Positions 3,287 through 30,320 of a stretch of 53,938 bases of DNA are shown piece by piece. The notes beneath the pieces are model-generated. The model had not been told where the DNA came from and ran no database searches. It saw only the letters and a list, made by a program, of their open reading frames with translations. The stretch is from a virus (lineage: Duplodnaviria; Caudoviricetes), in the IMG/VR virus record IMGVR_UViG_3300048583_000290, positions 1-53,938 of that record; one strand, 5' to 3'. Both the position numbers and the translations under genes were made by a program. The number at the start of each line of letters is the position of its first letter. Positions within the stretch are counted from its first letter, which is position 1.

Positions 3287-3316
3287 GGTTGCCGCTGGAA
3301 CCGCCCAGCGACAACC
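3287..3316 (-). promoter_or_regulatory. 5'-leader hairpin with GCGGU apex
   Basis: GGTTGTCGCTGG-GCGGT-TCCAGCGGCAACC upstream of the RBS. Confidence 0.6.
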
Positions 3317-3450
3317 CCTATGTAGGAGCTTGGGCCGGACAAGTAAACCCCTCTCAACAACTTTTTTTGTGTATCGGACAACTTTTTTTATTATACAGCG
3401 TTTTCAGTGGGTTAGCAGACACAAATTTTTCGCTATATAAGGCCACGCGG

Positions 3451-3590
3451 CGACAGGCGGCCCTAGGCGGCCCTAGGCGGCCCTAGGCGGCCCTCGTGGA
3501 GACTAGGCGGCCCTAGGCGGCCCTAGGCGGCCCTCGTGTCCCTAGGCGGCCCTAGGCGGCCCTCGTGGCCCTAGACGCGGCCCTAGGCTG
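3451..3590. repeat. 10-bp tandem repeat (CCCTAGGCGG)n, about 14 units with CCCTCGTG variants
   Basis: Directly visible; higher-order pattern of 2-3 core units plus one variant unit. Confidence 0.95.
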
Positions 3591-3656
3591 TCCTCAACCC
3601 CTCAACCCCTCAGAACATCAAAATTATTCATCAATTTCAATGGGTTATGCGGTTTT

Positions 3657-3872
3657 TGACGGAATGATGTGGGATTTCAACAACTTATGGTGTAATGATG
3701 TCGAGAGTGACGGAATGACGCCCAAAATGACGCGATGACGCGGCACCCGTCCAAAAAATCAACAGAATGACGGAAATGACTACCGAGTTGGTTACAATCC
3801 ACCGAGTTGGTTGAAATCCAGCAGTTGAGCGACAATTTCATCGCACTTTTGCAGAATCACTACCGGGTTGAT
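3657..3872. repeat. Dispersed AATGAC and ACCGAGTTGGTT repeats
   Basis: Several (G/A)AATGAC copies at 3657-3780; ACCGAGTTGGTT at 3782 and 3801; variant at 3862. Confidence 0.75.
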
Positions 3873-3891
3873 AGCATTCAAAAATACTTGT

Positions 3892-3950
3892 TTGCTTAGC
3901 ACTGTCAAGCGTCTAGGATACAAGAATTGGTTGGAGCGGTTCCGGCCAAT
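3892..3950 (+). promoter_or_regulatory. Early promoter plus GCGGU leader hairpin
   Basis: TTGCTT-N16-TAGGAT, then ATTGGTTGGA-GCGGT-TCCGGCCAAT, then GAAGG RBS. Confidence 0.65.
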
Positions 3951-3968
3951 AAATCAGAAGGCAAGATA

Positions 3969-4205
3969 ATGAAGCGTTTCACTGAAGATGAGCTCAAGCT
4001 CCAAGAGCAGATGGACAAAGACGTTTATGAATCGACGCGCAGCATGTTCGAGCATTTCGTGCTCCGGGTCATCCGCGAAGCAAAGCACGGCGGCGATGTC
4101 GCAAAGGACGTGGATGCCATTATCAATCTCTACAATGGCACGTCTGAATCGGCGCAGCGTTTGATGGGCAAAGTTCGCCGCCTCGACAATGAGGTGTCCA
4201 AATGA
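3969..4205 (+). CDS. Hypothetical early protein
   Basis: RBS, promoter, ATGA coupling to the next ORF. Confidence 0.7.
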   Translation: MKRFTEDELKLQEQMDKDVYESTRSMFEHFVLRVIREAKHGGDVAKDVDAIINLYNGTSESAQRLMGKVRRLDNEVSK

Positions 4206-5563: not shown

Positions 5564-7051
5564 TCAGAATGGCTCGTCATTCTCAGTTTTGGTATTGGCG
5601 GTCAGCACTGGCGCGGCTCGCTTCTTCCATTTCGACAAATCCGCAGGCACGGTCATATTTCCGCAACGATTGCGCGACAGCCAGCTTTTGGCAAAATCAG
5701 CTTGGTTTTTGATAATCACCTTATCCGTAACATAGACGCCATTGAACCGCTCATTGTCAACTCGAACACGACCGATGCCATAGTAACCATGCTCGCGCAT
5801 CTTGTGCGGAAAACTTTTGCCGAACACCAACTTGTCAATCATCTTTGAGTCATCATTTATCGACGCTGAATCCTCGATATATGCCCGAAATTCATTTGTG
5901 ATGAACACATCCGGGTTGCCTTGAGCTTCAAAGTAATTCTCCAAATAGTCATCCAAAGGCGTTCGCCGGACATTGCTCACCAACTCGCGCAGAGCCTCTT
6001 TTGATTCAGTCGTCGGTGCTTTGGCGCTCGGATTGAACGCGTGCAAATCCCGGCGGCTCAGCCAATGGATGGCATGCTTCCAGCCGCCGCCATTCATCCA
6101 CGCATAAAAGCGTTCAAAATACCCGTCTGGCCATTCCTCAGCCTTGCGCGCGGCATGAAGCAACGTCAATCTCCGGTCATCGTCCTCAATATGAAGCGAG
6201 AATGGATGATTGGTCGTTGTGAACAACGCAACTCGATTGGCGACCTCATACTCATCTATGCCCTTCCGTTCAACCGGAATGAACAGCGGCGGCGCGACCG
6301 TGACATCTTTGAGCGCCTCATATAGCTCGACACTACTCTGCTCGCGGCTGCTCGTTTCGTTAATGACGACCAGCAATGACCGAACCCAAGCATTGAACCT
6401 GCCGCCCGCTTTGCTTCCTTTCACCGTTTTCATTAAGCTGTTGCCGAGCCAATGCTGGAAGGGCACAAACAGAGTATCTTTGCCGCTGCCCTGCGGCCCG
6501 TGAATGACGCACAAGCCGTTCAACTTCCGGTCAGGGAATTGAACTTTGAACGCAAGCCGGTCAAGCAGCATCTGACGTTCAACCTCATTTGGGAAAAGTT
6601 GTTCGATATGATTGATATACGGCCCTGCGTCACCTTCCCAATCCGCATCAACTGCAATGGGCGGCAGGTATTCATTGAAGACCTTCATATTGGGGGCCTC
6701 GCGCAACTCCCCATCGCTGCACATATACCGCGCAATAATCTGCGGCATGCCAGGCCACCATGTTCGGCCATACACCAATCGCCCAAATTCCGGGTTCATG
6801 ATGTCAATCGTCGGCTTGACGAAAACAATTTCGCCTTCATCGTCCTCGAATGAGCGCCAAAACTCTCGTGGAATGACGCCATTTACAGTCGCGGCTGCCA
6901 CCATCGCGCCGCTCTTTACATCGATGAACTTCTCACTTGGAAGGTCAAAGACAAAATCTTCTGGGCGCGGCGTCCTGTCAATATAGTCATCGATGTGCGC
7001 TTCAGCTTTGGCCGCAAGCTCGTCATCATACGGGTCATTGTCGTCGCTCAT
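5564..7051 (-). CDS. SF3 (D5/DUF5906-like) replicative helicase
   Basis: Walker A GPQGSGKDT, Walker B LVVINE, motif C FTTTN. Confidence 0.85.
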   Translation of the reverse strand: MSDDNDPYDDELAAKAEAHIDDYIDRTPRPEDFVFDLPSEKFIDVKSGAMVAAATVNGVIPREFWRSFEDDEGEIVFVKPTIDIMNPEFGRLVYGRTWWPGMPQIIARYMCSDGELREAPNMKVFNEYLPPIAVDADWEGDAGPYINHIEQLFPNEVERQMLLDRLAFKVQFPDRKLNGLCVIHGPQGSGKDTLFVPFQHWLGNSLMKTVKGSKAGGRFNAWVRSLLVVINETSSREQSSVELYEALKDVTVAPPLFIPVERKGIDEYEVANRVALFTTTNHPFSLHIEDDDRRLTLLHAARKAEEWPDGYFERFYAWMNGGGWKHAIHWLSRRDLHAFNPSAKAPTTESKEALRELVSNVRRTPLDDYLENYFEAQGNPDVFITNEFRAYIEDSASINDDSKMIDKLVFGKSFPHKMREHGYYGIGRVRVDNERFNGVYVTDKVIIKNQADFAKSWLSRNRCGNMTVPADLSKWKKRAAPVLTANTKTENDEPF

Positions 7052-8076
7052 TGCCACTTCTCCCATTCCCCAGCATTTTCGTTCGCCGCTTCAAGAATTG
7101 CTTCATCTTGCTCTGCGACCCATTCAGTAAGGTGTCGCCAGCCCTTATCAGCGCAGTGACCGTGGTGGCATCGGAAAGCACCCGTCCACCCATTCTCTTC
7201 ATTTGGCTCGCGTATCGCGGCACCGCTGTTGGCAGCCCCTGAATGCTCATCAGTCCAAGGGCAAACAATCTGCGACCACCCTGCCATATCGGCCATCAGT
7301 GTCTTGAGCATCTTCGCCTGCCGCAGTGCCTTGCGCACATTCCTGAATGCGAGGATGCTGTCTTGCTTATCGACAGTCGCGCCGCGCGGCATCCCTCGAT
7401 TGACGACCGGCGCTGTCAGGTCAACGCCAAATGCCGCAGCCAGTGCTTCGGGCGCATATCGTCGGTCAGCGTCCAGCGATGCCAGCCTCACCTTCCACTG
7501 TTTGCCGTTCGCAGTCCGGTGCTTCGGCTTCCCGTTCACTCCAACTGGCGGCCTGAAAACGCGGTTGACGCCCGCCATTCCGGGGTCATTGCCCATAAAC
7601 TGCTTATCAATGAAGCCTTTGATGAGGCGCTCAAATAGGCCGATGTCAGTCACGGCGCAGTCGAACATATAGACTGCCTGATAATTGTCTTTCGATGTTT
7701 CGATGAGTGCGGTGCACGGCAACACCGATATGATGTCCATTGAAAATTTGGCGCCAGCCCCGGTGCCAATATCATCAATCATCAGGCAGAGGCCGCCAGC
7801 AAAATTCTCTTTGCGGCGGCGATATTCACCGCGCTCATTCTGCTTCATCGCCGAGACGCAAACATAGACGTTGGCGCCCTCGTCAATCTTGCCGGGTCCA
7901 TAAGTCTTGGCCGCCCAATTCTGCTTCTCGATGTCATTCGGGTCACCCCGGAATTGACATATCATCAATCTTGCGTCGCGCGGCACGTATTTGCCCATCG
8001 CACCGAAGAATGATTCCCATTCTGCCGCTTCATCCATATATGTTTGCCGCCACCACGATTGTTTAGCTCCCGCCAA
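7048..8076 (-). CDS. RepB-like AEP primase with C-terminal Zn-binding domain
   Basis: MIDD, IETSKDNYQAVY, RVFRPPVGVNGK, CPW..EH...FRCHHGHC. Confidence 0.8.
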   Translation of the reverse strand: MAGAKQSWWRQTYMDEAAEWESFFGAMGKYVPRDARLMICQFRGDPNDIEKQNWAAKTYGPGKIDEGANVYVCVSAMKQNERGEYRRRKENFAGGLCLMIDDIGTGAGAKFSMDIISVLPCTALIETSKDNYQAVYMFDCAVTDIGLFERLIKGFIDKQFMGNDPGMAGVNRVFRPPVGVNGKPKHRTANGKQWKVRLASLDADRRYAPEALAAAFGVDLTAPVVNRGMPRGATVDKQDSILAFRNVRKALRQAKMLKTLMADMAGWSQIVCPWTDEHSGAANSGAAIREPNEENGWTGAFRCHHGHCADKGWRHLTEWVAEQDEAILEAANENAGEWEKWQ

Positions 8077-8208
8077 TCCTTGTCTCAGCGCCCCGCTTCG
8101 CGCCTCGCGCCCGCCCCTCGCTACCGCCGCCGCGCCGGTTAGAACATGTTTTAAGCGCGTCTAGGGCCTTCCCCGCTACCTACCCCCAGCCGCCCGCTTC
8201 CGGCGCTC

Positions 8209-8508
8209 CTAGCCCCGTTCCGCCCGTTCCTTAAACATATCCCTTTTTGCGCTTTCCAGCAGCAGCATTTCGGCGCTATGCTGCCACGGCTTGCGGCGGC
8301 GCGTCATCGTATATTCAAATTCGGCCACCGACAGCTTTCGTTGAACGAGGTCAATCAATCCCTTGTCCTCTGCCATCAACAGCAGATTGCGGGAGCTTCG
8401 CATGTCCGCAGACAGCAGTGCGTCAACCGCAAAGAACCCTCGGTGATATGTTTTCGTCTGGCGCGGCTCAGCCGCAGCAATCCAGTTTGCTATCTCACGC
8501 AATGTCAT
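8209..8508 (-). CDS. Hypothetical protein
   Basis: YHRGF..D / G.I.LVQRK...FEY pattern recalled from alphaproteobacterial phage proteins. Confidence 0.65.
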   Translation of the reverse strand: MTLREIANWIAAAEPRQTKTYHRGFFAVDALLSADMRSSRNLLLMAEDKGLIDLVQRKLSVAEFEYTMTRRRKPWQHSAEMLLLESAKRDMFKERAERG

Positions 8509-11258: not shown

Positions 11259-11435
11259 TCAGTCAACCCACCGACCGTTGTAGAGGATGCCGACGATGTC
11301 CGGGTTCGCGCGGCAATACGCTTTGGCCGCCGAATAGATGGACGGGCCGCTGATGGTCGTCTTGATGTTGTTCGAGTGCTTGTCGTCCAAAGCAATCTCG
11401 ACTTTGAAATCGTGAACTTTCTGGGGGATAGGCAT
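11259..11435 (-). CDS. Hypothetical 58-aa early protein (MPIPQKVHDF...; not in ORF track)
   Basis: GAAGGA RBS after promoter and hairpin; open frame to TGA at 11259-11261. Confidence 0.65.
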   Translation of the reverse strand: MPIPQKVHDFKVEIALDDKHSNNIKTTISGPSIYSAAKAYCRANPDIVGILYNGRWVD

Positions 11436-11449
11436 TACAGGTTCCTTCT

Positions 11450-11500
11450 GCCGGCACCGCGCCGACGCCTTCCTTATCCGATATTTTCACTGCTAAGCAA
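11450..11500 (-). promoter_or_regulatory. Early promoter plus GCGGU leader hairpin
   Basis: TTGCTT...GATAAGG, then GTCGGC-GCGGT-GCCGGC, then GAAGGA. Confidence 0.65.
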
Positions 11501-11502
11501 AG

Positions 11503-11754
11503 TTATTTTTTTGACGGCAGCCAATGTGTCGGTGGCGGAAAGCTGTAGCGCCGGTCTTCATTCAGCCACCTTGGCGTGTCGGCATATGCGATGTCTGCCG
11601 GGCCGTTTTCATCGTCATGCCGCATCGGTGAATCATCGCTGTTAATGTTCCAGACCGCCCAACCTTCGGCAATCTTCTGCCTTCGATGAACGCGCTTCAC
11701 CCACTGGCGGCTGCCATCCTTCGGTGCCTCGGCAATCGGTCGCCAATCAGCCAT
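11503..11754 (-). CDS. DUF551-like hypothetical protein
   Basis: WRPIAEAPKDG...PTHWLP signature. Confidence 0.7.
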   Translation of the reverse strand: MADWRPIAEAPKDGSRQWVKRVHRRQKIAEGWAVWNINSDDSPMRHDDENGPADIAYADTPRWLNEDRRYSFPPPTHWLPSKK

Positions 11755-11941
11755 CGTTCTTCTCCAACCTGTTTTGAATTCGCACCAAAGCACCGCGTGC
11801 GATGACGGCGCAAATGTGCGCATCAGGCGGGTCGTGCGGCTCTGGGTGGCCGATTGCGTTTAGTGAAATCTTGGCCTCTGCCAAAGCCCCTTCCAGCCGC
11901 GCAATTCGGGCATTGAGAAGTTCAAGGTGTCGCATAGTCAC
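11747..11941 (-). CDS. Hypothetical protein
   Basis: Coupled ORF, coiled coil. Confidence 0.55.
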   Translation of the reverse strand: MTMRHLELLNARIARLEGALAEAKISLNAIGHPEPHDPPDAHICAVIARGALVRIQNRLEKNDG

Positions 11942-12153
11942 TGGTCTGCAATCCTCGTTGGCGGAACCTTGCAGGTATGCGCTTTGAACTGCGGCAATCG
12001 AACAGCCACTTCAAAATGGCGGCCAGCGACCATCATCCCTGGGGCCGTCAAGTCGCGGCGCGGTCGCCAGACGAAAAAGAAGTGATACCAGTCAGGGCCG
12101 CGCAACACGTCGCGCCCGATGAAGGCCATGAACAGAGAGGTCTGAATACCCAT
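11938..12153 (-). CDS. Hypothetical protein
   Basis: TGATG coupling to the ligase; N-terminal QTSLF. Confidence 0.55.
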   Translation of the reverse strand: MGIQTSLFMAFIGRDVLRGPDWYHFFFVWRPRRDLTAPGMMVAGRHFEVAVRLPQFKAHTCKVPPTRIADQ

Positions 12154-13088
12154 CACATATCCTCGCGTTGCCGGAATGACTGCCACGTTGGGAAGCGCGG
12201 CTTGTCCTTGATGCCTTTGGGGAAGAATTTGGCTTTGTGGAGCTTCGCTTTGAACTCCTCTTGGTTGGCAAAGAAATAGCGGCGTTGGTCGTGCGACAGG
12301 CAACCGGCGCCAACCCGCACTTGCTGGCCTGCCTCGAACAGCACCTTGTCACCGTCTTTGACGACACCGACTGTGCGGCCAATCATCGCGCCAATCATCC
12401 CGTTGGCAACTTTGTTTTCCTGGTGGCTCGAACGGAATGTGCGGCCCAGCTCATTGATTTGGGCTTCATTCTGGTTCTCCTCACCTTCGATGATTTCATC
12501 CACGAGGAATTCAAAATCAACAAACCGCTTGATGCGCCATTTGATGAGCTGTTTGCCAGCCCGCCCTTCCTTGTGCGCCGCTGCCGGGCCGCAGATGACG
12601 GTGCCTTCAAAGCCGGCAAGCAAATTCTCGGTGTCGAACGCCTCAAGCTCTTCCAAGCTGTAAATGACCCGACACGGCATAATCCGCAGGTGAACTTCAA
12701 AGTTTGGATATTCCTCGCTGACTTGGCGCACCCTGTCTGCCAGCTGCAGCAAACGATGCTCATAGCCCGCATTTCGGTTGTCATCGGTGACATAGTCGAA
12801 CAGCCACCAGACGATGTGCGGCTCACCGTCGATTGTCCCGGTCGCTGAACTGGTCATCCGGCACAAATCGGGGTGGTTGTTCGGCCCCGCCGCAAATTCG
12901 CCATCGAAGCCGATGAGCGCCGGGTGACTGAACCGGGCCGTCAAATAGCGGTTCTTGAACGGCTTGAGCGAACGCGCTGTCAGGTTGCCGTTGAGGTTCA
13001 GCGCCCGCACACCATCGACTTTTGGCTGGGCGATAAGTGGGAAGCGCAACCTGTTCGGCTGCCAGTCGTCAAGTAGGTGCGGCTTCAT
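12153..13088 (-). CDS. lig: ATP-dependent DNA ligase
   Basis: Motif I PKVDGVR, FDGE, LFD, FEG, WRIKRF, C-terminal PRFP. Confidence 0.92.
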   Translation of the reverse strand: MKPHLLDDWQPNRLRFPLIAQPKVDGVRALNLNGNLTARSLKPFKNRYLTARFSHPALIGFDGEFAAGPNNHPDLCRMTSSATGTIDGEPHIVWWLFDYVTDDNRNAGYEHRLLQLADRVRQVSEEYPNFEVHLRIMPCRVIYSLEELEAFDTENLLAGFEGTVICGPAAAHKEGRAGKQLIKWRIKRFVDFEFLVDEIIEGEENQNEAQINELGRTFRSSHQENKVANGMIGAMIGRTVGVVKDGDKVLFEAGQQVRVGAGCLSHDQRRYFFANQEEFKAKLHKAKFFPKGIKDKPRFPTWQSFRQREDM

Positions 13089-14534: not shown

Positions 14535-14555
14535 TTCAAGTCCTTCTGTCGTCGT

Positions 14556-19831: not shown

Positions 19832-19927
19832 TCAACTCTGGCCGGTCAAGGCAAAACCAAAGACCAGCAATACCCAAAAAACGATGAAAATGGCAAAACA
19901 ACCGAGCACTTCGCCAAAGCTCTTCAT
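19832..19927 (-). CDS. 31-aa membrane peptide (not in ORF track)
   Basis: TAATG coupling; a single TM segment. Confidence 0.5.
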   Translation of the reverse strand: MKSFGEVLGCFAIFIVFWVLLVFGFALTGQS

Positions 19928-20654: not shown

Positions 20655-20672
20655 ATTCCGTTCCTTCCGAAG

Positions 20673-20734
20673 CTGGAAACGACACCGCGTCGCCTCCAGT
20701 CCCTCGCTTATCGGCCCTTTTTCTTGCGAAGCAA
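20673..20734 (-). promoter_or_regulatory. Early promoter plus GCGGU leader hairpin
   Basis: TTGCTT...GATAAG, then CTGGAGGCGAC-GCGGT-GTCGTTTCCAG. Confidence 0.7.
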
Positions 20735-20853
20735 ACAGGTTTTATTGATAGACTCAAAAATTTCTTTGATAGGCGGTCGTTTTTCTTGTCTAAACGCTTG
20801 CTCTGCGTCGTGGCCGCCGCCCCGCCCTATAGAGACGGCCACGCGCCGAACAA

Positions 20854-22299
20854 CTAAAACACGCCGTCTATCACTTGCAGCGCTGTGCCTTCCTTGGCTT
20901 GCAGTGCGGCGGCGATACGTTCATCAATCGTGTCAACAGCCACCAAGTCAATGTAAATGACGTTCGATTTGGTTCCAATTCGATGGCACCTGTCCTCGCT
21001 CTGAAGCCGCTGTTCCAGATTGAAGGTGTTGCTGAAATAGATGGCTGTCTGCGCGGCTGTGAGCGTCAACCCGACACCTGCGGTCGATGGATTGCCGATG
21101 AAGAAGCGAGCCTTGCCAGACTGAAAATCGTCAATCGCCGTTTCACGGTCGCCTTTGCTGGTGCCGCCGTGGTATTGAACGAATGGCTCTTTCATTTCGG
21201 TCAGCAGTTCAGCAATCGCGGCCAGCTCTGCGCGGAACCCGGCCCAGATGATGACTTGCCCTTCAACGTCTTCAAGCACTTCCTTGAGCGCTGCCATTCG
21301 AGCACCACCATCTTCCAAAGCGACCGGCTCACCGTCTTTCAAAATATAGCCGGATGCCGCCTGCCGCAGCTTTGTGATGACGGTCAGTGCCGTGAAGACA
21401 TCAATGTCGGTATCGGAATGCTGGAAGCGCAGCGTGCTGGCCAATGCGTCATACGCGGCTCGGTGCGACGGCCCCAGTTCAAAATACTGCGTCTTGTAAA
21501 TTTTTGCCGGCAGGTCGAGACAATCCTCTTTGCGAACGCGATACATGTATGGCCGCAGCCTCTCGTGAAGGCGGTCGAGATTGCGATACATCGGATTGCC
21601 GTTCCGGTCACGCTGGATGACGAGCGGCTCACCGCGTTTGCCGCGCGCAATGGCTTGATACAACTGGCTGCTCTTGTCGAGCAGAACGGCATATTCTGAG
21701 ACAAACGCCCGGAACGAGTTGGTTCCAAGCAGGCCGTGCCGCAGGAATTGAAACTGCGAGAACAAATCCTGCGGCCCCTGCGTCAACAACGTCCCGCTCG
21801 CAATTCGCCGTGAAACAGAAAGCGGTGCCAAATCGCTGATTTTCTGCGTGCGGACAGCATCCTTGTTCTTGATGCGCTGGCTTTCATCGATGACCAGCAT
21901 GCACTTGTGCGTGCGCAGAAACCGCTCGGCAATCTCGCGGCCCTTCACCGTCGAAATGGCATCGACGTTCATCGTGAGGATTGCCAACCGCTCCCCCGGC
22001 TTCATAAGGGCTTCAATCCGGCCCAGCAAAATTTTTCCGGCACCGGATGAATAAGCCGCGCCCGCCCAAGGGATGCTCAAGTGCGTCGGTGCCTCGCGGC
22101 GTATCCAGTTGGTGTGGACGCCTTTTGGAGCAATGACCAGCAATCCGCGAACGCCACGGTGCAGAAATTGACGCTCCGCATCGTTGAGAAGCATCCACGT
22201 TTTGCCAGTGCCTTGCTCGCAGGCCAGCGCATAAAAGTCTGGCATTGAGTCCAGCAATTCTTGTGCCGTGAGCTGGTGCTCCATCGGGGCCGTTTTCAT
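20854..22299 (-). CDS. SNF2-family helicase
   Basis: EQGTGKT, VIDES, SGT, GVGLTL, QSEDRCHRIG. Confidence 0.92.
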   Translation of the reverse strand: MKTAPMEHQLTAQELLDSMPDFYALACEQGTGKTWMLLNDAERQFLHRGVRGLLVIAPKGVHTNWIRREAPTHLSIPWAGAAYSSGAGKILLGRIEALMKPGERLAILTMNVDAISTVKGREIAERFLRTHKCMLVIDESQRIKNKDAVRTQKISDLAPLSVSRRIASGTLLTQGPQDLFSQFQFLRHGLLGTNSFRAFVSEYAVLLDKSSQLYQAIARGKRGEPLVIQRDRNGNPMYRNLDRLHERLRPYMYRVRKEDCLDLPAKIYKTQYFELGPSHRAAYDALASTLRFQHSDTDIDVFTALTVITKLRQAASGYILKDGEPVALEDGGARMAALKEVLEDVEGQVIIWAGFRAELAAIAELLTEMKEPFVQYHGGTSKGDRETAIDDFQSGKARFFIGNPSTAGVGLTLTAAQTAIYFSNTFNLEQRLQSEDRCHRIGTKSNVIYIDLVAVDTIDERIAAALQAKEGTALQVIDGVF

Positions 22300-22514
22300 G
22301 ATATTGAGTCCAATTCCGTGTTGAGACCACCGTTTGTTGGCAACTCAGCCATGCCAACGAGGACAGCCGCGCGATTGCCTAGCGGAGTGCGCAGTGACTT
22401 GTTTTCAGCTTCCGTTCTGCCATAATGGGTGAACGTCTGCGACCGCACAACATCGCAGATGAATGCTTCAAGCGCCGATATGCGAGCTTGCAATTGCGCG
22501 ACTGTTTCGCTCAT
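22296..22514 (-). CDS. Hypothetical protein
   Basis: ATGA-coupled on both sides. Confidence 0.6.
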   Translation of the reverse strand: MSETVAQLQARISALEAFICDVVRSQTFTHYGRTEAENKSLRTPLGNRAAVLVGMAELPTNGGLNTELDSIS

Positions 22515-22915
22515 TGGATGCCTTCGCTCTTCAAAAATGCCTCAACGGTGTCGAATTGCTCGATTTGGTCAAGGTGGTGAAAGACAGTCTCGCGCGGCCC
22601 GATGATTGTCAAACGCTTTCCCAAACCTAGCGCGATGCCAAATTCGATGTGCCGCCCGCCGCGACCGTTGCTTCTGGGCTCTTCCATCAGCGAAATCATC
22701 CAGTCGCAAGCCAGAACGTCATCAACGTCCTCCATTGCAAATCGGCGACGTTCGGAATCAGCCGCTTGGTCTGAAGTGCCAGTGGGAATGACGTGGTCAT
22801 CACCCGGCTTCACCCATCGGCTCGTGATGCTATGGCCGCGCATTTGAAGCAGTTTGGCGAGCGCGTGGCATTCATGCCGACGACTGAAGCGTGCTGCAAT
22901 ATAAATTGCGCTCAT
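22511..22915 (-). CDS. Nucleoside 2-deoxyribosyltransferase-like (NDT/DNPH1) N-glycosidase
   Basis: IYIAARF...DVDDVLACD...GGRHIEFGIALGLGK. Confidence 0.75.
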   Translation of the reverse strand: MSAIYIAARFSRRHECHALAKLLQMRGHSITSRWVKPGDDHVIPTGTSDQAADSERRRFAMEDVDDVLACDWMISLMEEPRSNGRGGRHIEFGIALGLGKRLTIIGPRETVFHHLDQIEQFDTVEAFLKSEGIQ

Positions 22916-23259
22916 TGCTTGTCGGCCCGTTCCTGCGCGGCGGCATCACTGTAGCCCAGCGAGGCATAACGCTTGCTGAGCTTGGCGATGTTGTGCGCGA
23001 TGGTCTGCTCGCGGGTGATGCCGAGCCGCTGGCGCAACTGCTCCATATAGAATTCCATATCGCCCAATTCTTCGATGACGTTCTCGATGTCGAGCGGCTT
23101 GTTGTAGATGACATGCTTTTTGATGCCATCGAGCAATTCGCCAGCCTCACCGCTGATGCCCATAATCGCGTGGATGAGGTCAACCGACCCAACAGACAGC
23201 GTTGCCCGGATGTCTTCCGGCGGCTTGACAAGTGCTTCAACCAAGTCAGCGTGCTTCAT
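22912..23259 (-). CDS. MazG-like NTP pyrophosphohydrolase
   Basis: GEAGELLD..KK...EELGD..FY...NIAKLSKRY. Confidence 0.88.
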   Translation of the reverse strand: MKHADLVEALVKPPEDIRATLSVGSVDLIHAIMGISGEAGELLDGIKKHVIYNKPLDIENVIEELGDMEFYMEQLRQRLGITREQTIAHNIAKLSKRYASLGYSDAAAQERADKQ

Positions 23260-23650
23260 TGATAATTCCCCATATCTTTTGCCAATTGGCGTGGTAAGGT
23301 GTAAACTGAGTGTTCGTCCAGTGAACTGCCTCTGCGACAAATTTGCCCGGAACGAATGAAATGATACCAGCACTGTCGCGTATCAACAGCCAGCTTTTGG
23401 TGCCCATTGATGCCGCTTTGATGTGCCAGTTTATTTGGTCGATACGCAAATCCTTTCCCAAAACAGGTGTCGTGTCCCTCACTGGTCGCTGCGGCGCTTT
23501 CAACTCAACCCAGCAATCGCAACCAGAAAGGCTCTTTGCCAGAACGTCCGGCATCCCCGGCCCCAGACCATTTTCAACGCGCTGCAGCCACATGTCAGTC
23601 GGCGCTTGCCGCTTCATCGTGTCCCAGAGCTTTTGTTCTTGCTGGCGCAT
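23246..23650 (-). CDS. VRR-NUC / PD-(D/E)xK nuclease (resolvase-like)
   Basis: RVEN...GMPDV...WVELK...QINW. Confidence 0.8.
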   Translation of the reverse strand: MRQQEQKLWDTMKRQAPTDMWLQRVENGLGPGMPDVLAKSLSGCDCWVELKAPQRPVRDTTPVLGKDLRIDQINWHIKAASMGTKSWLLIRDSAGIISFVPGKFVAEAVHWTNTQFTPYHANWQKIWGIINEAR

Positions 23651-26427
23651 TATTTGAACATCTCATCGTTGGTCAAGCACTTGACTTTTTCAACGCTGAA
23701 CATACCGAATTGGGCGAGCCATTTGCCGCGAACCAATAGCCAGTCCTCACCCGGCTTGGCGCGGTCAGCAATCTTGACCCCGGTGCTGAGCCAATCGCGG
23801 CGATTGATGCGCAGAAGGGCTGGCTTGCTGACAGAGTCATCAACGCAGTGAACGTCGGCAAAGAGCGTCTGGCCTTTCATCACGTTGCCGCGCCGATTGA
23901 TGCGGACAGCTTCATTCTCATCCCGCCTATCGACACGTTCGACCCGGCAAATGACGACCGCACTTTCCATATCTGCCAGTTCGCCAAATTCTTTGATGCG
24001 GCCCCTTATATTGTATTCGGCAGGGTTGTCATACATATGCTGCCAACGGGTGTGCGCGGGCCGCAGGTCGGCAAACTTGATTGTTGCGTTGGCAATCTGC
24101 TCCAGTTGTTTGGCGGTCAGCGTTCCGGTGTCGCGTGCCTCGCGCAGTTTCGCGGCTTTGACGTCACCGACGCCGACCATGTTCTTGAAGCCGCCAATAA
24201 TCTTGGTGTCGGTCGCAACCCAATCATCGCTGCTCAACTCCAAGCTGAACGGGATAACTTCAATGCCTTCCGCTGCCAGCTCACGCAACGTCTCGATGGT
24301 CTGCTCATCGTCTTTTGCGGCCCGCAGCAGAGCCGCAGCAAACTTGAGTGGGTGGTGAGCTTTGAGCCACATCGTCCAGTATGCGATGATTGCATAGCTG
24401 ACCGTGTGCGATTTGTTCATCCCCCACGCACCGAAGGTCACCAAAGACTTCCACAGGGCGGCGGCTGATTGCTCTTCAATTCCATTCTCTGCGGCACCGG
24501 CCATGAATGCCTTGCCCTTGGTGTTGAAGTATTCCGGGCCTTTGCTGCCGCTCATTGCCTTGCGAATTTCAGAAACTTCCGCCCAGCCCATCTTTCCGAT
24601 TTCAAAGCAGATGCGCATCACCTGCTCTTGATAGATGACGACGCCCTGCGTTTCGCCCAAATACTCTTTCATCGATGGATGAACATACACCACAGGCTCT
24701 TTGCCGTTGAGGCGCTGCATGTAAGTATTGGTCGCACCGCCAGCCATCGGCCCCGGTCGCGCCAAAGCGGTCACGTGGTCGATTTGACTAAACCTGTCAT
24801 AGTGCATCTGGGCGCTGACGCGGCGCTGCGATTTGCCTTCAAACTGGAAGATGCCGGCAAATCGCTGGACATTGAGGATGTCAAAGGCCGCAACTTCATC
24901 GAGCGGCAACCGATACAGCTCTTCAGCGGTCACGACCCCGGCATCTTCGATGACGCCAAGAGTGCGCAATCCGAGAACGTCAATCTTGAGCAAGTCCAGA
25001 TGCCCGGACATTTCCTTGTCAACGTGAGCAACGCCATCACGCACGGTGCAATATTGGGTTATCAAAGTTTCAGACACCAGCAAGCCAGCTGCGTGAACCG
25101 ATGTGTGGCTTGGATGCCCTTCAAGGTCGGCCATCACCCTCGCCTCTGGGAACAGCTTTGCGAATTTGCGGCCATTTTCTGTTTCATTCAGAGTGTCCTC
25201 AAGCCCCTTGCCATAGCGTGAGTCGCCCGATGAATGCTCAATCAGAACGTCTGCGACAGCATAGGTATCTTTGGCCGGGATGCCCATCTTTTTGCCAACG
25301 TGGTTGAGCACCGACCGACTTTGAAGGCGGCTGATGTTGCCGAGGCGCGCAACATTGTCTTTGCCATACTTTTCTGCCATATAGTCAAAAACCATATAGC
25401 GATGTTGGTCGCTGAAGTCGATGTCAATATCAGGCAAATCGCTGCGCGTCACGTCGATGAAGCGTTCAAACAGGAGATTGTGAACGAGCGGGTCAACTTC
25501 CGTTATGCGAGCCAGATAGCAGACAAGGCTGCCGGCAGACGAGCCGCGCGCTGGGCCAACAATCATCCGCTCTTTGGCCCAGCGCACCATATCGCCGACG
25601 ACCAAAAAGTAGCTTTCATAAGCCTTCTGGGCAATCACATCCATTTCGCGTTGAAGGCGAGCTTCATACGCTGGCGTCCATTCCTTGATATGCCCTGCTT
25701 CTAGCCGATATGCCTGACCGACACGGACTTCATCCCAAAGGTTGCCCGGCACCGATATGATTGGGGCTTTGGCGAGGCGCTGGCCGCGCAATCGTTCGCC
25801 AATTTCCTGCGTATGGCCTACAGCAAAGTCCCACTGCTTGTCAGTCAAAAACCAATAGGCGGAACGCAATTCATCCATGTTGAGAACGTGCTGCGGCGTC
25901 ATCCGTTTGTTGTCATCCCACGCCAGATATTTGAACTTATCCGCTGCCGTTGGATAGTCATTCGTTGGGGCCAGAACGAGCGGCTTGCCTGTTGATTCAG
26001 AAAGGCCGATTGCGTGGCGTGCCATCAACCGCGAGTGAATGTCAATATCAACGTAATCAAAGTGGGCCGGGTCGGTTAGGGCCGCGCCCGCGAAAACGAT
26101 AGTCCCGGCGCGCGACGTTAGCCGCTCCGGGCCGAAAGGAACCGCCGACGATAGGAGATAGCCCGCCCGCGTATCGGTCGCTATAGCCCACGCTAGGGGC
26201 TTCCGTTCGTCATTTTCGTTAGGGAAGCTAAAAGTGAAACCAAAACCCGGTTCGATGCCGACCTTGAGGCAAGCGATTTCATGAGGAACGTGCCCCCAAG
26301 TGCCATCATCGTCAACTAGGGCAACGGCGGTGTATCCGGCATCCTTAGCTGCGCTCGCAAGCGCGTGTGGTGTGCCAAATGCTTTGCGGAAACTATATCC
26401 AGAACGGCCACGCAATAACGGTATCAA
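23650..26427 (-). CDS. dnaE: DNA polymerase III alpha-like (family C), degenerate PHP domain
   Basis: GPARGSSAGSLVCY, LLFERF, catalytic PDIDID, HAAG, LLKIDVLGL, MNKSH..SY. Confidence 0.95.
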   Translation of the reverse strand: MIPLLRGRSGYSFRKAFGTPHALASAAKDAGYTAVALVDDDGTWGHVPHEIACLKVGIEPGFGFTFSFPNENDERKPLAWAIATDTRAGYLLSSAVPFGPERLTSRAGTIVFAGAALTDPAHFDYVDIDIHSRLMARHAIGLSESTGKPLVLAPTNDYPTAADKFKYLAWDDNKRMTPQHVLNMDELRSAYWFLTDKQWDFAVGHTQEIGERLRGQRLAKAPIISVPGNLWDEVRVGQAYRLEAGHIKEWTPAYEARLQREMDVIAQKAYESYFLVVGDMVRWAKERMIVGPARGSSAGSLVCYLARITEVDPLVHNLLFERFIDVTRSDLPDIDIDFSDQHRYMVFDYMAEKYGKDNVARLGNISRLQSRSVLNHVGKKMGIPAKDTYAVADVLIEHSSGDSRYGKGLEDTLNETENGRKFAKLFPEARVMADLEGHPSHTSVHAAGLLVSETLITQYCTVRDGVAHVDKEMSGHLDLLKIDVLGLRTLGVIEDAGVVTAEELYRLPLDEVAAFDILNVQRFAGIFQFEGKSQRRVSAQMHYDRFSQIDHVTALARPGPMAGGATNTYMQRLNGKEPVVYVHPSMKEYLGETQGVVIYQEQVMRICFEIGKMGWAEVSEIRKAMSGSKGPEYFNTKGKAFMAGAAENGIEEQSAAALWKSLVTFGAWGMNKSHTVSYAIIAYWTMWLKAHHPLKFAAALLRAAKDDEQTIETLRELAAEGIEVIPFSLELSSDDWVATDTKIIGGFKNMVGVGDVKAAKLREARDTGTLTAKQLEQIANATIKFADLRPAHTRWQHMYDNPAEYNIRGRIKEFGELADMESAVVICRVERVDRRDENEAVRINRRGNVMKGQTLFADVHCVDDSVSKPALLRINRRDWLSTGVKIADRAKPGEDWLLVRGKWLAQFGMFSVEKVKCLTNDEMFK

Positions 26428-26948
26428 ATTAACACCCCTGCCATCTTGCAAACTTCGACCAGCGCCTCAACGTCATCCAATGCGCGGTGAGTCTGGTTGA
26501 GCGGCTTCCCAGTATAATGCTCATACAGAGTCACCAGCTTTGGTCGAAAGCCCCAGAGCGGCAAATGCTCTTGAACAGTGCAGAGCCGCCGCTCTGGCCA
26601 AGGCACCGTAACGCCGATGCGCGCAGCATCAAGCTCGACCATCATCGTGTCGAACGGCAGATTGTGGGCAATCGCTTGGCCGCAGCCTAACATATATGCC
26701 TCAATCTGCGGCCAGACTTCTTCAAAGCTAGGTTTGCCTTCGAGCATTTCGTTGGTGATGCCGGTGATTTTGGTAATTTCCTCGGTCACCATCATGCCCG
26801 GATTAACGAGCAGAGTCAAGCTATCTTTCACAATGCCTTCTGCATCGCACCGGACGGCGGCAAACTCGATGATGCGCGGCTGGACAGCATCCTTGGCATT
26901 CGGATGCTTTGTCAGCCCGGTTGTTTCGGTATCAAAAACCAAGTTCAT
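26424..26948 (-). CDS. dnaQ: DEDDh 3'-5' exonuclease (DnaQ/epsilon-like)
   Basis: FDTETTG, AHNLPFD, HRALDD. Confidence 0.92.
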   Translation of the reverse strand: MNLVFDTETTGLTKHPNAKDAVQPRIIEFAAVRCDAEGIVKDSLTLLVNPGMMVTEEITKITGITNEMLEGKPSFEEVWPQIEAYMLGCGQAIAHNLPFDTMMVELDAARIGVTVPWPERRLCTVQEHLPLWGFRPKLVTLYEHYTGKPLNQTHRALDDVEALVEVCKMAGVLI

Positions 26949-27700
26949 CAGGAGTTTTCCAGAATAAGGCTTTCCAGCATTGCGGCATAGACGCCGATGT
27001 CGTGAGCGCTGTCGGCATGATTCAGGCCGCCAGTAGCGAGCCGAGACATCTTGACGGCAATCATCAGGAACACACCGAATTGATTGCTGTGAAGCTGCGC
27101 TGGCTCGATGCCGTGCGGAAACAACGCTGCCATGAGCGGCCCGAACGCCTTGTAGTTGCCACCATAAGTCTTGTTGCGCTCGCGGAACACCGCTGCCATA
27201 TCGTCCAGCAGGGTGTCAGGCGTTCGCACTCGTTTTGGCTTCGATGGCGTGACAAAATGCTCTGGGCCGTGAATTGCGAGCACTTCAGCTTTGTAACCAG
27301 CCGCGCGATACGCTTCAACAACTTCTGCCCGGTCATCGTAGCACATAATGATGTCAGAGTGCGGAACGCCGTTCATCGAAAGGTGCTTGCCGAGCACGGC
27401 CACTTTGAACTCGGAGGTTTTGCGGAAATCGTCATTTTTCCGCATCAACAGCTCATCGCTGATGCCCCAAAGCCCTTTCTGCTGCAGCCACGTTTCTGTG
27501 CTGGAGCGATATTTGACTGTGCGGCCAGTCAACCAGATGATGGCCGCGCCAGACACCCGCGCAGCGCTCAGAACGTCGGAGTGATGATAATCGTCATCGA
27601 TGTGCTTGGAGTGGTATGCGTCATACCCTTCAGCCAGAAGCGGACGCCGATGCATGTCGTCAGCCACGCAATTGTCGATGTCAAAGACATAATATCGCAA
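26948..27700 (-). CDS. HAD phosphatase fused to an all-alpha pyrophosphatase-like (DUF6378-like) domain
   Basis: FDIDNC, LTGR, LMR..DD.R...FK, YDDR; C-terminal RNKTYG...KMSR...DSAHDIGVYAAM. Confidence 0.75.
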   Translation of the reverse strand: MRYYVFDIDNCVADDMHRRPLLAEGYDAYHSKHIDDDYHHSDVLSAARVSGAAIIWLTGRTVKYRSSTETWLQQKGLWGISDELLMRKNDDFRKTSEFKVAVLGKHLSMNGVPHSDIIMCYDDRAEVVEAYRAAGYKAEVLAIHGPEHFVTPSKPKRVRTPDTLLDDMAAVFRERNKTYGGNYKAFGPLMAALFPHGIEPAQLHSNQFGVFLMIAVKMSRLATGGLNHADSAHDIGVYAAMLESLILENS

Positions 27701-27705
27701 TGGAC

Positions 27706-28512
27706 TTACTCCGCACGCAGAAGGTCGATGGCCTTGGCAATGTCCCAGCCATCGCCGCTGCCGGTGGTGATGCCGATGCGATTGGCGACCGCTTCCAGCA
27801 TCTTGATGGCCTTTTCATTCTTCGGTTCAAAGAAGATTTCGGCCCACGGCCAGACATCGATGACAGCCTGCCGCATTTGCGCGATGATGTCGGCATATTC
27901 GCCCTGCGTCCGCAATGACGACCGCGCAACGACGAGGTCAGCAAAGGCGCGCAGATTGTATTTGGCGACCAAATTGCAGTGGATGTTCATCGGCAGGATG
28001 CCGCGCGCATCTTCGCGGCTCGCCCCATCAGCGACCAATTCTGCATATTCGGCGATGGCGCCGGTGGCCTGGTCTGCAAACAGCTCGAAATGCGATTGCT
28101 CTTTCATCGGGTTATAGACGCTCGATGAAGAAACGTCAACGACGCGCTGCGACTGCATCGCATAGCTGCCGGTGCGTGTTCGCGTTATTTGCTGGGCGCA
28201 GGCGCGGCTCACCTTGCGGATGAGAAATGTCACGTCAACAAATTCCCAGCTGCTGCGGATGGTCGCAGCCATCAGCGCCAGTTCATCGAGCTTCTTCTGC
28301 TCCGGCCAGTGCGTGATTGAAAGCAAACCGCCCATATCCATTTCGAGCCGCGTCTGCTTGGTGAAGATGAGAAGGTCTGCGGCGTGCCATTTCTGGTCGA
28401 TGCGCCCGGCACCTGTGAAGTCCATCAGATAGACTTCAACATCGGTTTTGCGCTCAAGAGCCGCCAGCGCCGGGTCGTTGTTGCCGTCAATCAGGCTGAG
28501 TTGCGTATTCAC
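27706..28512 (-). CDS. thyX: Divergent flavin-dependent thymidylate synthase-like protein
   Basis: SWEF..TF.I..VSR..QQITRTR..SYAMQSQR, EDARGILP, NLRAF; canonical RHR and SxRY motifs are altered. Confidence 0.8.
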   Translation of the reverse strand: MNTQLSLIDGNNDPALAALERKTDVEVYLMDFTGAGRIDQKWHAADLLIFTKQTRLEMDMGGLLSITHWPEQKKLDELALMAATIRSSWEFVDVTFLIRKVSRACAQQITRTRTGSYAMQSQRVVDVSSSSVYNPMKEQSHFELFADQATGAIAEYAELVADGASREDARGILPMNIHCNLVAKYNLRAFADLVVARSSLRTQGEYADIIAQMRQAVIDVWPWAEIFFEPKNEKAIKMLEAVANRIGITTGSGDGWDIAKAIDLLRAE

Positions 28513-29429
28513 GATGACTTAATCCTTCCATCATAGCTGTCGGCGGCCATCAACCGTTTGATAACCGTTATGTCTTGGACAACGTCATCCAGCAGAAGAT
28601 TGCGCCAAGTCGCAAACCTGCCGAGGCTATAAATGCCACGCTCTTCTGACAGCCGCCGCACGACGCTGCGACGGACTTGTTCATCAATAGGCGATATTTT
28701 GCCATATCTCTGAGTTGTCGATTCAAGTTCGTGGATTTCACCGACCTCAAGCGCAAAGGCCATCAGCATTTCGGACAGCCAATGGCCGTTCTCATCCTTG
28801 GTCGGCGCATCACCGATGAACTCGGCAATCAGCAAGTTGCCGGTGATTGATGCCCGATACATGTTGTGCGTTGGCGTCGGAAAATAGACTGTCTGATAGA
28901 CATCAGCATCGCGCATTTCGATACGCCAACGCAGCACGCAAATTTTCGAGCGGCTGAATGTTTCGTTGATTGGCTCGCCCAAAGCCCGCGCGGCGACTGG
29001 CATCGGGGCAGTGCTGACATGCGGCACCGGATGATAGATGCCGATTTTCGCAAAGTCGAAATCTTCACCCCAGCAAATGCGTTGTCCGACCTGCTCCAGC
29101 AACCGCTCATAGAAGTTTTCTGGAGCGATAAAGCGGTGCGCCGTTTCGATGTTCCAGATGCTGCGGTCGAGCAGCGTGCCAGTCACCTTGCGGCTGTAAA
29201 GGTTGGCGAGCCGCACGCTTGGCTGCTCAAACTTGCCATTATGCAAAATCCCCTTCCGCACTGTTACGCGACGGAAAGGGATGGCGGTGGCGTGGCTGAC
29301 TGAATCACTTCTGAAGCGAAGCAGCGCCTTATGATTTTGGATTGGAGATTTGGAAGTCTCCGTGATTGTAGCTCGCGGCCAAGCGTGCGCCGCAATAAGG
29401 CCCGCAAGCCCTGCTCCGATGATAATCAT
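28509..29429 (-). CDS. FAD-dependent oxidoreductase, UDP-galactopyranose-mutase-like
   Basis: IIGAGLAGL Rossmann motif; C-terminal LGRFATWR.LLLDDVV resembling the UGM GRxxxYxY..D motif. Confidence 0.7.
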   Translation of the reverse strand: MIIIGAGLAGLIAAHAWPRATITETSKSPIQNHKALLRFRSDSVSHATAIPFRRVTVRKGILHNGKFEQPSVRLANLYSRKVTGTLLDRSIWNIETAHRFIAPENFYERLLEQVGQRICWGEDFDFAKIGIYHPVPHVSTAPMPVAARALGEPINETFSRSKICVLRWRIEMRDADVYQTVYFPTPTHNMYRASITGNLLIAEFIGDAPTKDENGHWLSEMLMAFALEVGEIHELESTTQRYGKISPIDEQVRRSVVRRLSEERGIYSLGRFATWRNLLLDDVVQDITVIKRLMAADSYDGRIKSS

Positions 29430-29477
29430 TCGTCCCCCTATGGAATGAGGGCGCGACCGGAGCCGCGCCCATTTGGC

Positions 29478-30239
29478 TCAAGCAAACTGCTCGGCCAATT
29501 CCCACAGGCCACGGTTGAAATCGACAGTGCGATTGATTTGCGTGATGGGCTTGCTGGTGATGGAACGCTGCGTCCCAGTCGTGCCGTTCAGCCCGCCGAC
29601 AAAGCAGTTTTCCTGGACGACGTTGAACGTCCGCCAAAGGTCGCTGCCTTCATCGGCCATTCGTCGCGGCTTGAGCAATTCTGCCGTGTCATAGGATGAA
29701 ATGTCGCCCCACCGCAGGATGCTGGCTGCGCGGGCAAATTCCGTCTGCTTGGCAGGCGACAATTCCTTGGCGCTCCAATCTTCGATGGTTTTCTGAACCT
29801 GCGGCATCCGCTCTGACAGAAGGCCGGCAAAGTTGAGGGCTTCATCGATGACGTTGCCGGAATGGCGACCGGCGTAGCGCATGATGTTGTCGCCGATGAA
29901 CAGGCCATTGGCGCACACAAAGCGATAGATGCCGCCCATCATCGTCAGCTTGCGCCGACCGTTGTGCGAGTTGATGATGATAATCTGCGGCACTTCGTTG
30001 CCGACCTTGGCGACCTGCTCGATGTGGTCTTGGTGCCGCAGCACGACCATGTGCGTCACAAAACGCGGGTCACGCCGGGTGGGGTTGTCCTGCTTGGCTT
30101 GGACGGGGTGATACCCGACATCAGCCATACGCCGAACGACATCGATGGTGCGAACCTGCTTGTAAAGCTCGCTCATCTTGTGCGTGTCGGAAAACATCGA
30201 CGGGGCGCAAAGCTCCATCGAACGCTCGGTCATCATCAT
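29478..30239 (-). CDS. DUF932/DUF945-family protein
   Basis: HMVVLR, IIINSHNG, RFVCANGL, LWRTFNVVQEN, NRGLW. Confidence 0.88.
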   Translation of the reverse strand: MMMTERSMELCAPSMFSDTHKMSELYKQVRTIDVVRRMADVGYHPVQAKQDNPTRRDPRFVTHMVVLRHQDHIEQVAKVGNEVPQIIIINSHNGRRKLTMMGGIYRFVCANGLFIGDNIMRYAGRHSGNVIDEALNFAGLLSERMPQVQKTIEDWSAKELSPAKQTEFARAASILRWGDISSYDTAELLKPRRMADEGSDLWRTFNVVQENCFVGGLNGTTGTQRSITSKPITQINRTVDFNRGLWELAEQFA

Positions 30240-30258
30240 TTGTTTAGCTCCCGAAATT

Positions 30259-30320
30259 GAGGGCGAAGCGCCGCGCTCCGCCCTCTATACCTGCCCGATT
30301 TAATCTGCGCTGGGAAGGGT
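30259..30320 (-). promoter_or_regulatory. Promoter plus GCGGC leader hairpin
   Basis: TATAGA -10, then GAGGGCGGAGC-GCGGC-GCTTCGCCCTC, then GGGAG RBS. Confidence 0.55.

Follow-up and report, generated by a model that had tools for sequence, protein, structure and literature searches.

The complete genome of an uncultured tailed phage held in IMG/VR (record IMGVR_UViG_3300048583_000290; 53,938 bases, 56% GC; the whole of it was analysed and is called the window below) carries nine short hairpins whose stems diverge in sequence and range in length from 4 base pairs (bp) at site 7 to 12 bp at site 1, and whose loops read GCGGT at sites 2-8, GCGGC at site 9 and GCGGTT at site 1. Each of the nine is situated in the intergenic leader of a replication or ORFan unit; the structural and lysis regions contain none (0/9). 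The explanation that we prefer, with a probability of about 0.45, is that each hairpin forms an RNA stem-loop close to the 5' end and that a putative factor reads its tip, so that the units are controlled jointly after transcription initiation; protection of the 5' end would be built in. The hairpin would then be a cis-acting RNA element in the 5' leaders of non-structural, probably early and middle, transcription units, and would form one part of a repeated promoter-leader cassette equipped with an UP-like A-tract. By virtue of its place near the 5' end, the stem alone would protect the mRNA against 5'-end-dependent decay and leave the ribosome-binding site accessible, and the tip, C-GCGGU-G (possibly a CGG triloop seated on a G·U or G-C pair), would be the part that is recognised.

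How clearly do these nine sites stand out from the rest of the genome? An earlier, sequence-only reading of the window had placed nine hairpins between promoter and ribosome-binding site; all nine were recovered at the same coordinates and on the same strands (Table 1), and at every site a promoter-like element and a Shine-Dalgarno (SD) sequence do flank the stem. Its description of the apex as GCGGT holds for sites 2-8, and so does its GCGGC variant at site 9, but not for site 1, where the loop is the 6-nucleotide (nt) GCGGTT. GCGG is constant in all nine tips and is followed by U in eight and by C in one, and the closing pair is C-G in seven of the nine. The signal looks like a real one rather than chance. 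Perfect stems of at least 6 bp (G·U allowed) with a GCGGY loop number six in the window, compared with 1.5 ± 1.1 in 300 first-order Markov simulations, none of which reached six, and GCGGT is the most frequent loop among the 383 hairpins with a stem of at least 6 bp and a 5-nt loop (5/383), all five being leader sites.

A covariance model built from eight sites (R1; site 1 excluded) gives these eight 23-29 bits, which is so by construction because they built the model; the best other place in the window reaches only 13.3 bits (E 0.35), and the motif is therefore absent away from these leaders. That it might be equally common away from promoters, an outcome named beforehand as one that would speak against it, is thus not what was found. 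A hold-out model, R2, was built from sites 2, 3, 7, 8 and 9. Outside this training set it ranked site 6 highest, at 20.5 bits (E 0.004), followed by site 5 at 15.9 bits (E 0.07); it did not recover site 4 (not listed at E ≤ 2) and gave site 1 just 12.1 bits (E 0.85), so that sites 4 and 1 count as members because of their context, not their score. Site 1, with 11.3 bits under R1, is a variant member that has the leader position and a GAAGGA 19 nt downstream. No tenth site was found in the window.

Does the hairpin belong to the RNA or to the DNA? Pairing was counted over eight sites, site 1 being omitted because MAFFT misplaces the extra base of its 6-nt loop. Within the inner six pairs, 93.8% of the cells are paired, as against 71.9 ± 4.2% after shuffling (0/500 shuffles reach the observed value) and 25-67% when the register of the inner stem is slid; over all 11 pairs the figures are 79.5% and, shuffled, 57.4%. 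All six inner pairs vary on both sides in this alignment, with a compensatory change from G-C to A-U directly beside the loop at sites 7, 8 and 9, and the earlier claim that the stems covary is thereby borne out. The stems hold ten G·U against one A·C on the transcribed strand (13 against 3 with a strand-blind extension), and the sole plus-strand site has its wobble pairs on the plus strand, which means that the bias follows the direction of transcription. A wobble bias on the transcribed strand indicates that pairing is selected there, which fits RNA, and two further claims of the sequence-only reading, namely that the G-T pairs work on the transcribed strand only and that RNA is favoured over a DNA operator, withstood this count. 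Taken together, pairing and wobble favour an RNA structure for the leader hairpin over a duplex operator, a cruciform or a template-strand hairpin.

The same counts bear on an element acting at the DNA level, in which the polymerase would be affected, as it initiates or pauses, by the conserved GCGCGGTG (about +5 to +15) or by a hairpin formed in the non-template strand, or in which transcription would start downstream and the hairpin would be part of the promoter. Such an element would account for the fairly constant distance between the -10-like hexamer and the tip (the loop begins 12-18 nt after the hexamer, independent of stem length), for the palindromes of sites 1 and 9, which extend upstream of the guessed +1, and for a -10-like hexamer that is atypical. 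However, recognition of duplex DNA has no need of the compensatory changes beside the loop at sites 7, 8 and 9, and on the template strand the wobbles turn into A·C mismatches, which argues against a cruciform or an N4-type hairpin. The N4-type promoter pairs a virion RNA polymerase with a template-strand hairpin; in the window, by contrast, the wobbles sit on the non-template strand, the 1742-amino-acid (aa) protein has a tail-tip domain, and no family of RNA polymerases, sigma factors, antiterminators or RNA-binding proteins came up in Pfam scans of 50 proteins or in PHROGs scans of 40. The RfaH ops consensus (GGCGGTAGNNTG) is likewise unmatched within two mismatches at any of the nine sites, and its count across the window (47 vs 43.8 ± 7.1) equals chance. 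Action at the DNA level thus strikes us as quite improbable.

Where in the transcript would the stem lie? All nine stems begin 2-11 nt after the -10-like hexamer. With +1 predicted from promoter geometry only, about 7 bases after that hexamer, no stem at site 2 or at any of the six consensus promoters (6-11 nt after it) begins upstream of the expected +1; at these seven better-defined promoters the stems would lie at the predicted 5' end or up to 6 nt from it (0-6 nt). Both the transcription start sites and the 'early' timing of the hairpin units are, it should be said, predictions made from the sequence. In all but one of the nine leaders, 14-21 nt separate the base of the hairpin from the AUG. 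When leaders are folded from the predicted start, the minimum free energy (MFE) structure contains the hairpin in seven of nine, including each of sites 1-5 and site 8, and leaves the SD mostly unpaired. At site 9, folded from its guessed start, the tip turns into a CGG triloop closed by G-C, a fold that raises the possibility of pairing between G1 and U5 of the loop at other sites too.

Much of this would also follow if the hairpin were a passive 5' stabiliser or insulator, with a stem that blocks decay by RppH and RNase E and keeps the SD unpaired and a loop that nobody reads. The model here is the ompA-type 5' hairpin: the leaders of ompA and of T7 gene 10 carry 5'-terminal stabilising stem-loops that are not known to need a particular loop sequence, and the present hairpins resemble them in their (predicted) location within a few nt of the 5' end, in preceding the SD and in having a stem sequence that is free to vary. 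At the better-defined promoters, seven in number, the stem would start close to the predicted +1, and in most leader folds the hairpin dominates; both are what passive shielding would call for. What it leaves unexplained is the tip, which here is invariant in every copy: the constancy of GCGG, the restriction of the fifth base to U or C and the C-G closing pair at seven sites have all persisted while the flanks were randomised. A stem of 4 bp, as at site 7, would moreover be a poor shield. We consider it unlikely that stabilisation is the whole answer; if it were, the finding would be an ordinary one, yet the invariant tip would still need explaining.

It is the contrast between tip and surroundings that leads to a reader. 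Neither the stretch from the -10 to the stem nor the one from the stem to the SD has any sequence that is common to the sites, and neutral positions have therefore been randomised; from a tip that stayed constant while its flanks were randomised and its stems diverged we infer that it is read sequence-specifically. The combination of an invariant tip with fully diverged stems likewise points to a putative trans-acting factor, most likely a phage or host protein. The putative tip-reading factor would control all hairpin units together after initiation, in whichever direction, and the object of that control would be mRNA stability or translation. Such a switch is favoured over antitermination because terminators are nearly absent, because the distance between the hairpin and its special SD is short and because a 5' stem is expected to slow decay.

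One may go a step further and regard the CGCGGUG tip as an address label: a putative dedicated phage or host protein would bind the 5' hairpins of all early and middle mRNAs and switch their stability or translation jointly, and the label could even mark 'self' during host shut-off. We hold this more specific version to be doubtful. It would be to post-transcriptional control what a promoter class is to transcription, and a mobile promoter-leader cassette would carry it. What would be the significance of such an arrangement? If the tip is read by a factor, about nine transcription units would be controlled via one small 5' RNA label, which, if true, would be a compact addition to the modes by which phages time their genes (promoter classes, N/Q antitermination and RegA-type repression). 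The cassette of promoter, 5' hairpin and strong SD would, in addition, be a ready-made expression part travelling with ORFans, and a mobile cassette of this kind bears on the question of new phage genes arriving already wired for expression.

Several observations weigh against the reading of the hairpin as a factor-bound 5' stem-loop. The hairpin of site 7, of only 4 bp, is missing from the MFE fold of its leader, and single leaders have unremarkable fold z-scores (-2.1 to +1.2). At both site 1 and site 9, about 4 bp of the palindrome lie upstream of the guessed start; either the by-eye promoters are wrong there, or the DNA itself matters at these two sites. Sites 4, 5 and 6 have a common 5' arm, GGCGGC, and the string GAAGGAYTTGAAATG, on which account they appear to be recent duplicates, leaving about seven independent stems rather than nine. 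All six consensus sites (11473-20734) have G as the last base of the -10-like hexamer, which is unusual for the sigma-70 -10 consensus and makes the promoter assignment uncertain. No RNA sequencing run holding the window sequence was found, the Pfam and PHROGs scans contain no RNA-binding, N-, Q-, NusG-like or sigma protein, and phage records, IMG/VR, metagenomes and GTDB yielded distant relatives or none.

Could the hairpin instead be a tag for processive antitermination? A factor loaded on the nascent hairpin would then make the polymerase terminator-resistant through the early region and perhaps into the late genes, after the manner of lambda boxB with N, or of the leader hairpin used by the NusG paralogue LoaP. 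A promoter-proximal hairpin in every unit and an early region of about 25 kb transcribed in a single direction suit this idea, as does the unit of site 1, since its end, immediately upstream of the terminase genes, is formed by the window's strongest intrinsic terminator (2789-2815, minus strand). Nevertheless, just two convincing intrinsic terminators were found in positions 1-40000, the one just named and 31961-31986 (plus strand), and only the unit of site 1 (1/9) meets a convincing one downstream, as a nut-type mechanism would need. In lambda, the nut site consists of boxA and of a boxB that is read by N and whose loop is a GNRA-like pentaloop (GAAAA or GAAGA type). The present hairpins are likewise short and promoter-proximal, with a 5-nt loop starting with G, and their specificity would reside in the loop and not in the stem; they differ in their number (nine copies vs two), in adjoining the SD and in having almost no terminators downstream. 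Their loops (GCGGU seven times, GCGGC and GCGGUU once each) are not GNRA-like, and boxA (CGCTCTTA-like), sought from -60 to +120 nt of each loop, is matched with two to three mismatches at best and within one mismatch at 0/9 sites. The scans turned up no N, Q or NusG-like protein, and a tight, short SD spacing is not a known feature of nut sites. Antitermination is, on this evidence, distinctly unlikely, and the earlier proposal of a boxB-like tag fails as a statement of family membership. The wider proposal of an RNA-level control system retains its RNA hairpin, its leader location and its covariation; it has lost boxB, and the Pfam and PHROGs scans supplied no binding protein.

The hairpin is embedded in a recurrent architecture that runs, in order, A-tract, TTGCYT, 16 nt, KANAAG, hairpin, 1-19 nt, GAAGGA, 5-9 nt and ATG, and that recurs six to nine times, mostly before ORFans. 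A strict promoter pattern, TTGC[CT][TG]-N15-17-[TG]ANAAG, searched on both strands of the whole window, has six matches, all six at hairpin sites; since the pattern was written from these very sites, the informative part is the absence of any match without a hairpin. An A-tract resembling CAATAAAAAC lies 2-4 bases upstream of the -35-like element. The TTGC(T/C)-type promoter of the sequence-only reading is thus present at the six strict matches and at site 2, and it is poorer at sites 1 and 9, where the promoters were read by eye only. At the consensus promoters, the -10-like hexamer extends upstream to GCC or GCG (site 8 has GCCGATAAG), and the -35 region reads TTTGCTT, which we take to resemble the T4 MotA box; the Pfam scans of the window proteins gave neither a MotA nor an AsiA family. 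A sigma-54 promoter was rejected for want of a GG element upstream of TTGC, and a sigma-28 promoter because only the -10 of site 8 resembles GCCGATAA and the spacing to any TAAA is wrong.

The SD is GAAGGA in seven of nine leaders, in agreement with what had been noted earlier (GAAGGC at site 2, GGGAGC at site 9). These leader SDs make up 7 of the 16 minus-strand copies of GAAGGA, and most other genes are preceded by GGAG or GAGG; by the same rough gene list, GAAGGA is a special SD, used as such in hairpin leaders only. The first genes of the leaders are mostly ORFans, with no Pfam family in seven of nine, DUF932 at site 9 and a sub-threshold match at site 2.

Two DNA sequencing runs (X1 and X2) hold relatives of about 90-95% identity as short contigs covering sites 3, 4, 5 and 9. 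In one contig of run X1, position 16404 is joined to 16823 with six other letters between, and the relative is without the whole cassette 16405-16822, that is, the promoter and hairpin of site 6 together with gene 16401-16718, and no hybrid cassette is left at the joint. The unit therefore behaves as a gain-or-loss module, in this single case. The PeSL elements of T4-type phages, according to excerpts of two reports (PMC2839356; PMC4122927), show the same repeated intergenic arrangement of sigma-70-like promoter, AT-rich upstream tract, stem-loop and SD before ORFans, and close relatives gain or lose cassette and gene as units, for which the X1 contig is the one case here. In those excerpts the stem-loop lies inside the promoter and terminates upstream transcription (PMC2839356; PMC4122927), whereas the present hairpin follows the -10 within its own leader and has no U-tract, variable stems and an invariant tip. 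As PeSL elements the nine hairpins were consequently rejected: instead of lying between -35 and -10 or over the -10 as a terminator, their stems start 2-11 nt after it.

Are the hairpins, then, mere relics of a mobile, PeSL-like promoter cassette that spreads ORFans, useful as linkers for recombination or as attenuators of read-through but without a function in the phage's own mRNAs? The repetition of the architecture, the X1 relative that is without exactly one cassette and its gene, the seemingly recent duplication of sites 4-6 and the PeSL-like inverted repeats in promoter spacers of the distant relative MyoSmar all accord with such an origin. On the other hand, no U-tract follows any of the nine hairpins and none (0/9) appears in the terminator lists, which also removes them as intrinsic terminators or attenuators; the common tip of 7-8 nt is too short for homologous recombination; the X1 junction has no hybrid cassette; and the covariation of the stems amounts to selection for pairing and not for sequence. 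We consider this explanation very improbable.

Among other known leader elements, the SAS/ESAS motifs of Cluster K mycobacteriophages, as excerpted, are alike in standing at the translation starts of many non-structural genes and in having a special motif, with the SD in it, that is closely preceded by an inverted repeat (PMC3203893). For ESAS, the same excerpts give conserved 17-bp arms, a varying spacer and a function that is unknown (PMC3203893), in contrast to the varying arms and fixed loop described here; hosts and sequences are unrelated. The excerpted part of a transcriptome survey of Pseudomonas phages describes 5' untranslated region terminators and short RNAs and does not describe this motif (PMC10914365). 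Two further candidates were rejected on the hairpin itself. The stems, of at most 12 bp, do not fit an RNase III site, and a loop without GGA does not fit a CsrA site.

A comparable motif was found neither in Rfam (0 matches at the gathering threshold for the whole window) nor in literature searches, nor in pattern scans of IMG/VR or GTDB, from which records very close to the window may be absent, and the hairpin may to that extent stand as undescribed, as had been suggested. The pattern of hairpin plus SD occurred in 88 IMG/VR stretches, with a single match in every one of the 80 listed; the 91 loci compared with 26 window proteins gave distant matches at most (≤41% aa identity). The promoter pattern had 20 single matches in IMG/VR, none with a hairpin, and the whole-cassette pattern had none there and seven single matches in GTDB, all without a hairpin (about five were estimated by chance). 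A blastn search of one cassette against phage records returned chance matches in coding regions only.

At the level of the genome, megablast of 12 kb against phage records gave no match, and the best tblastn identities were 49% for PolA, 33% for the J-like tail protein and 31% for the primase. Scanning IMG/VR with the helicase yielded three loci (28-38%) and scanning metagenomes with PolA three more (36-38%); GTDB scanned with PolA yielded none. In the distant relatives, a regular expression found no GCGGY-loop leaders, and R1 reached at best 14.8 bits (E 0.41), followed by 13.8 bits (E 0.76), over their 157,836 bases. One of them, Serratia phage MyoSmar, has a replication module of 31-49% aa identity and neither a recurrent loop nor GCGGY-loop leaders; inverted repeats inside its promoter spacers (14867-30899 of the locus compared, L117) give it a PeSL-like layout, although the phage is not T4-like. 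Crude screens of the window for arginine-rich segments and CxxC pairs produced no candidate reader, arginine-rich windows occurring only in ORFs (open reading frames) that overlap better genes.

Table 1. Positions of the hairpins, promoter-like elements, SD sequences and named genes in the window
Feature	Position	Strand	Details
Hairpin, site 1	3287-3316	-	12-bp stem (1 G·U), 6-nt loop GCGGUU; leads gene 2836-3252 (138 aa)
Hairpin, site 2	3926-3950	+	10-bp stem (2 U·G), loop GCGGU; leads gene 3969-4205 (78 aa); sole plus-strand member; R1 27.3 bits
Hairpin, site 3	11450-11466	-	6-bp stem (1 U·G), loop GCGGU; leads 58-aa ORF 11259-11435; heads unit containing primase genes; R1 29 bits
Hairpin, site 4	14556-14572	-	6-bp stem (2 G·U), loop GCGGU; leads gene 14325-14534; heads unit containing ligase gene; 23 bits as R1 training member
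Hairpin, site 5	16070-16088	-	7-position stem with one C·A mismatch, loop GCGGU; leads gene 15831-16052
Hairpin, site 6	16738-16754	-	6-bp stem (1 G·U), loop GCGGU; leads gene 16401-16718 (105 aa)
Hairpin, site 7	18208-18220	-	4-bp stem, loop GCGGU; leads gene 18005-18187; R1 24.8 bits
Hairpin, site 8	20673-20699	-	11-bp stem (2 G·U), loop GCGGU; leads gene 20184-20654 (phrog_3754), just downstream of helicase gene
Hairpin, site 9	30259-30285	-	11-bp stem (1 G·U), loop GCGGC; leads DUF932 gene 29478-30239; heads replication unit (ThyX-like, PNK, exonuclease, PolA, MazG-like, helicase); R1 25.5 bits
Promoter-like element, site 2	3892-3919	+	TTGCTT-N16-TAGGAT; read by eye
Promoter-like element, site 3	11473-11500	-	TTGCTT-N16-GATAAG; A-tract just upstream
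Promoter-like element, site 4	14583-14610	-	TTGCCG-N16-TAAAAG
Promoter-like element, site 5	16098-16125	-	TTGCTT-N16-TACAAG; A-tract upstream
Promoter-like element, site 6	16766-16793	-	TTGCTT-N16-TAGAAG; CAATAAAAAC upstream
Promoter-like element, site 7	18232-18259	-	TTGCCT-N16-GATAAG; CAATAAAAAC upstream
Promoter-like element, site 8	20707-20734	-	TTGCTT-N16-GATAAG; CAATAAAAC upstream
GAAGGA SD, site 1	3262-3267	-	hexamer
GAAGGA SD, site 3	11443-11448	-	hexamer
GAAGGA SD, site 4	14541-14546	-	hexamer
GAAGGA SD, site 5	16060-16065	-	hexamer
GAAGGA SD, site 6	16725-16730	-	hexamer
GAAGGA SD, site 7	18194-18199	-	hexamer
GAAGGA SD, site 8	20662-20667	-	hexamer
Large terminase	279-1928		
Primase	5564-8076		
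Ligase	12153-13088		
Helicase	20854-22299		
PolA	23650-26451		
J-like tail protein	38905-41598		
Tape measure	42301-44229		
Portal	49849-51234		
Major head protein	51856-53355		
1742-aa protein			tail-tip domain (Phage_Tail_Tip)

The genome in which these units are set ends on both sides in an exact 127-base direct repeat (1-127 and 53812-53938), which leaves 53,811 unique bases. It encodes particle genes of siphovirus type and a replication set of the phage's own (PolA, exonuclease, helicase, primase, ligase, PNK, a ThyX-like enzyme and a MazG-like protein), and the minus strand carries nearly all genes. One of the few plus-strand genes, 31314-31940, encodes a 208-aa protein with a C-terminal PEP-CTERM motif and has the terminator at 31961-31986, with its 11-bp stem, directly 3' of it; the gene resembles a moron and may point to a host that has an exosortase system.

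Genes 2836-3252 and 30361-30960 encode paralogous proteins, both matching phrog_4730, the longer of which (30361-30960) has a sub-threshold match to the I-TevI DNA-binding domain. The former is the gene led by site 1 and the latter stands just upstream of the site 9 promoter; both are possible DNA-binding regulators. The divergent hairpin-led promoters of sites 1 and 2 are separated by 13.4 tandem copies of a 10-bp unit, AGGCGGCCCT, which contains CCTAGG (3455-3588), with more short repeats nearby (3592-3612, 3727-3742 and 3782-3820); the array looks like an origin or a regulator-binding array. Long, G-rich non-coding stretches containing CTAG lie upstream of several promoters (14620-14790, 18260-18340, 8080-8210 and 31020-31160, all on the minus strand); CTAG is concentrated in them, and GCTTGTCTAAACG is found twice, at 18340 and 31137.

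Two copies of the motif CTTTCATTAAC, and a third, similar one read by eye, lie between the terminator that follows the site 1 gene (2789-2815) and the gene resembling that of a small terminase (2630-2770, minus strand); they may be a late promoter or a packaging signal. Two hairpins after the major head protein gene (51770-51850, minus strand), one with an 11-bp stem (GGCGGGAAGGG / CCCTTCCCGCC), may act as a 3' stabiliser or an attenuator.

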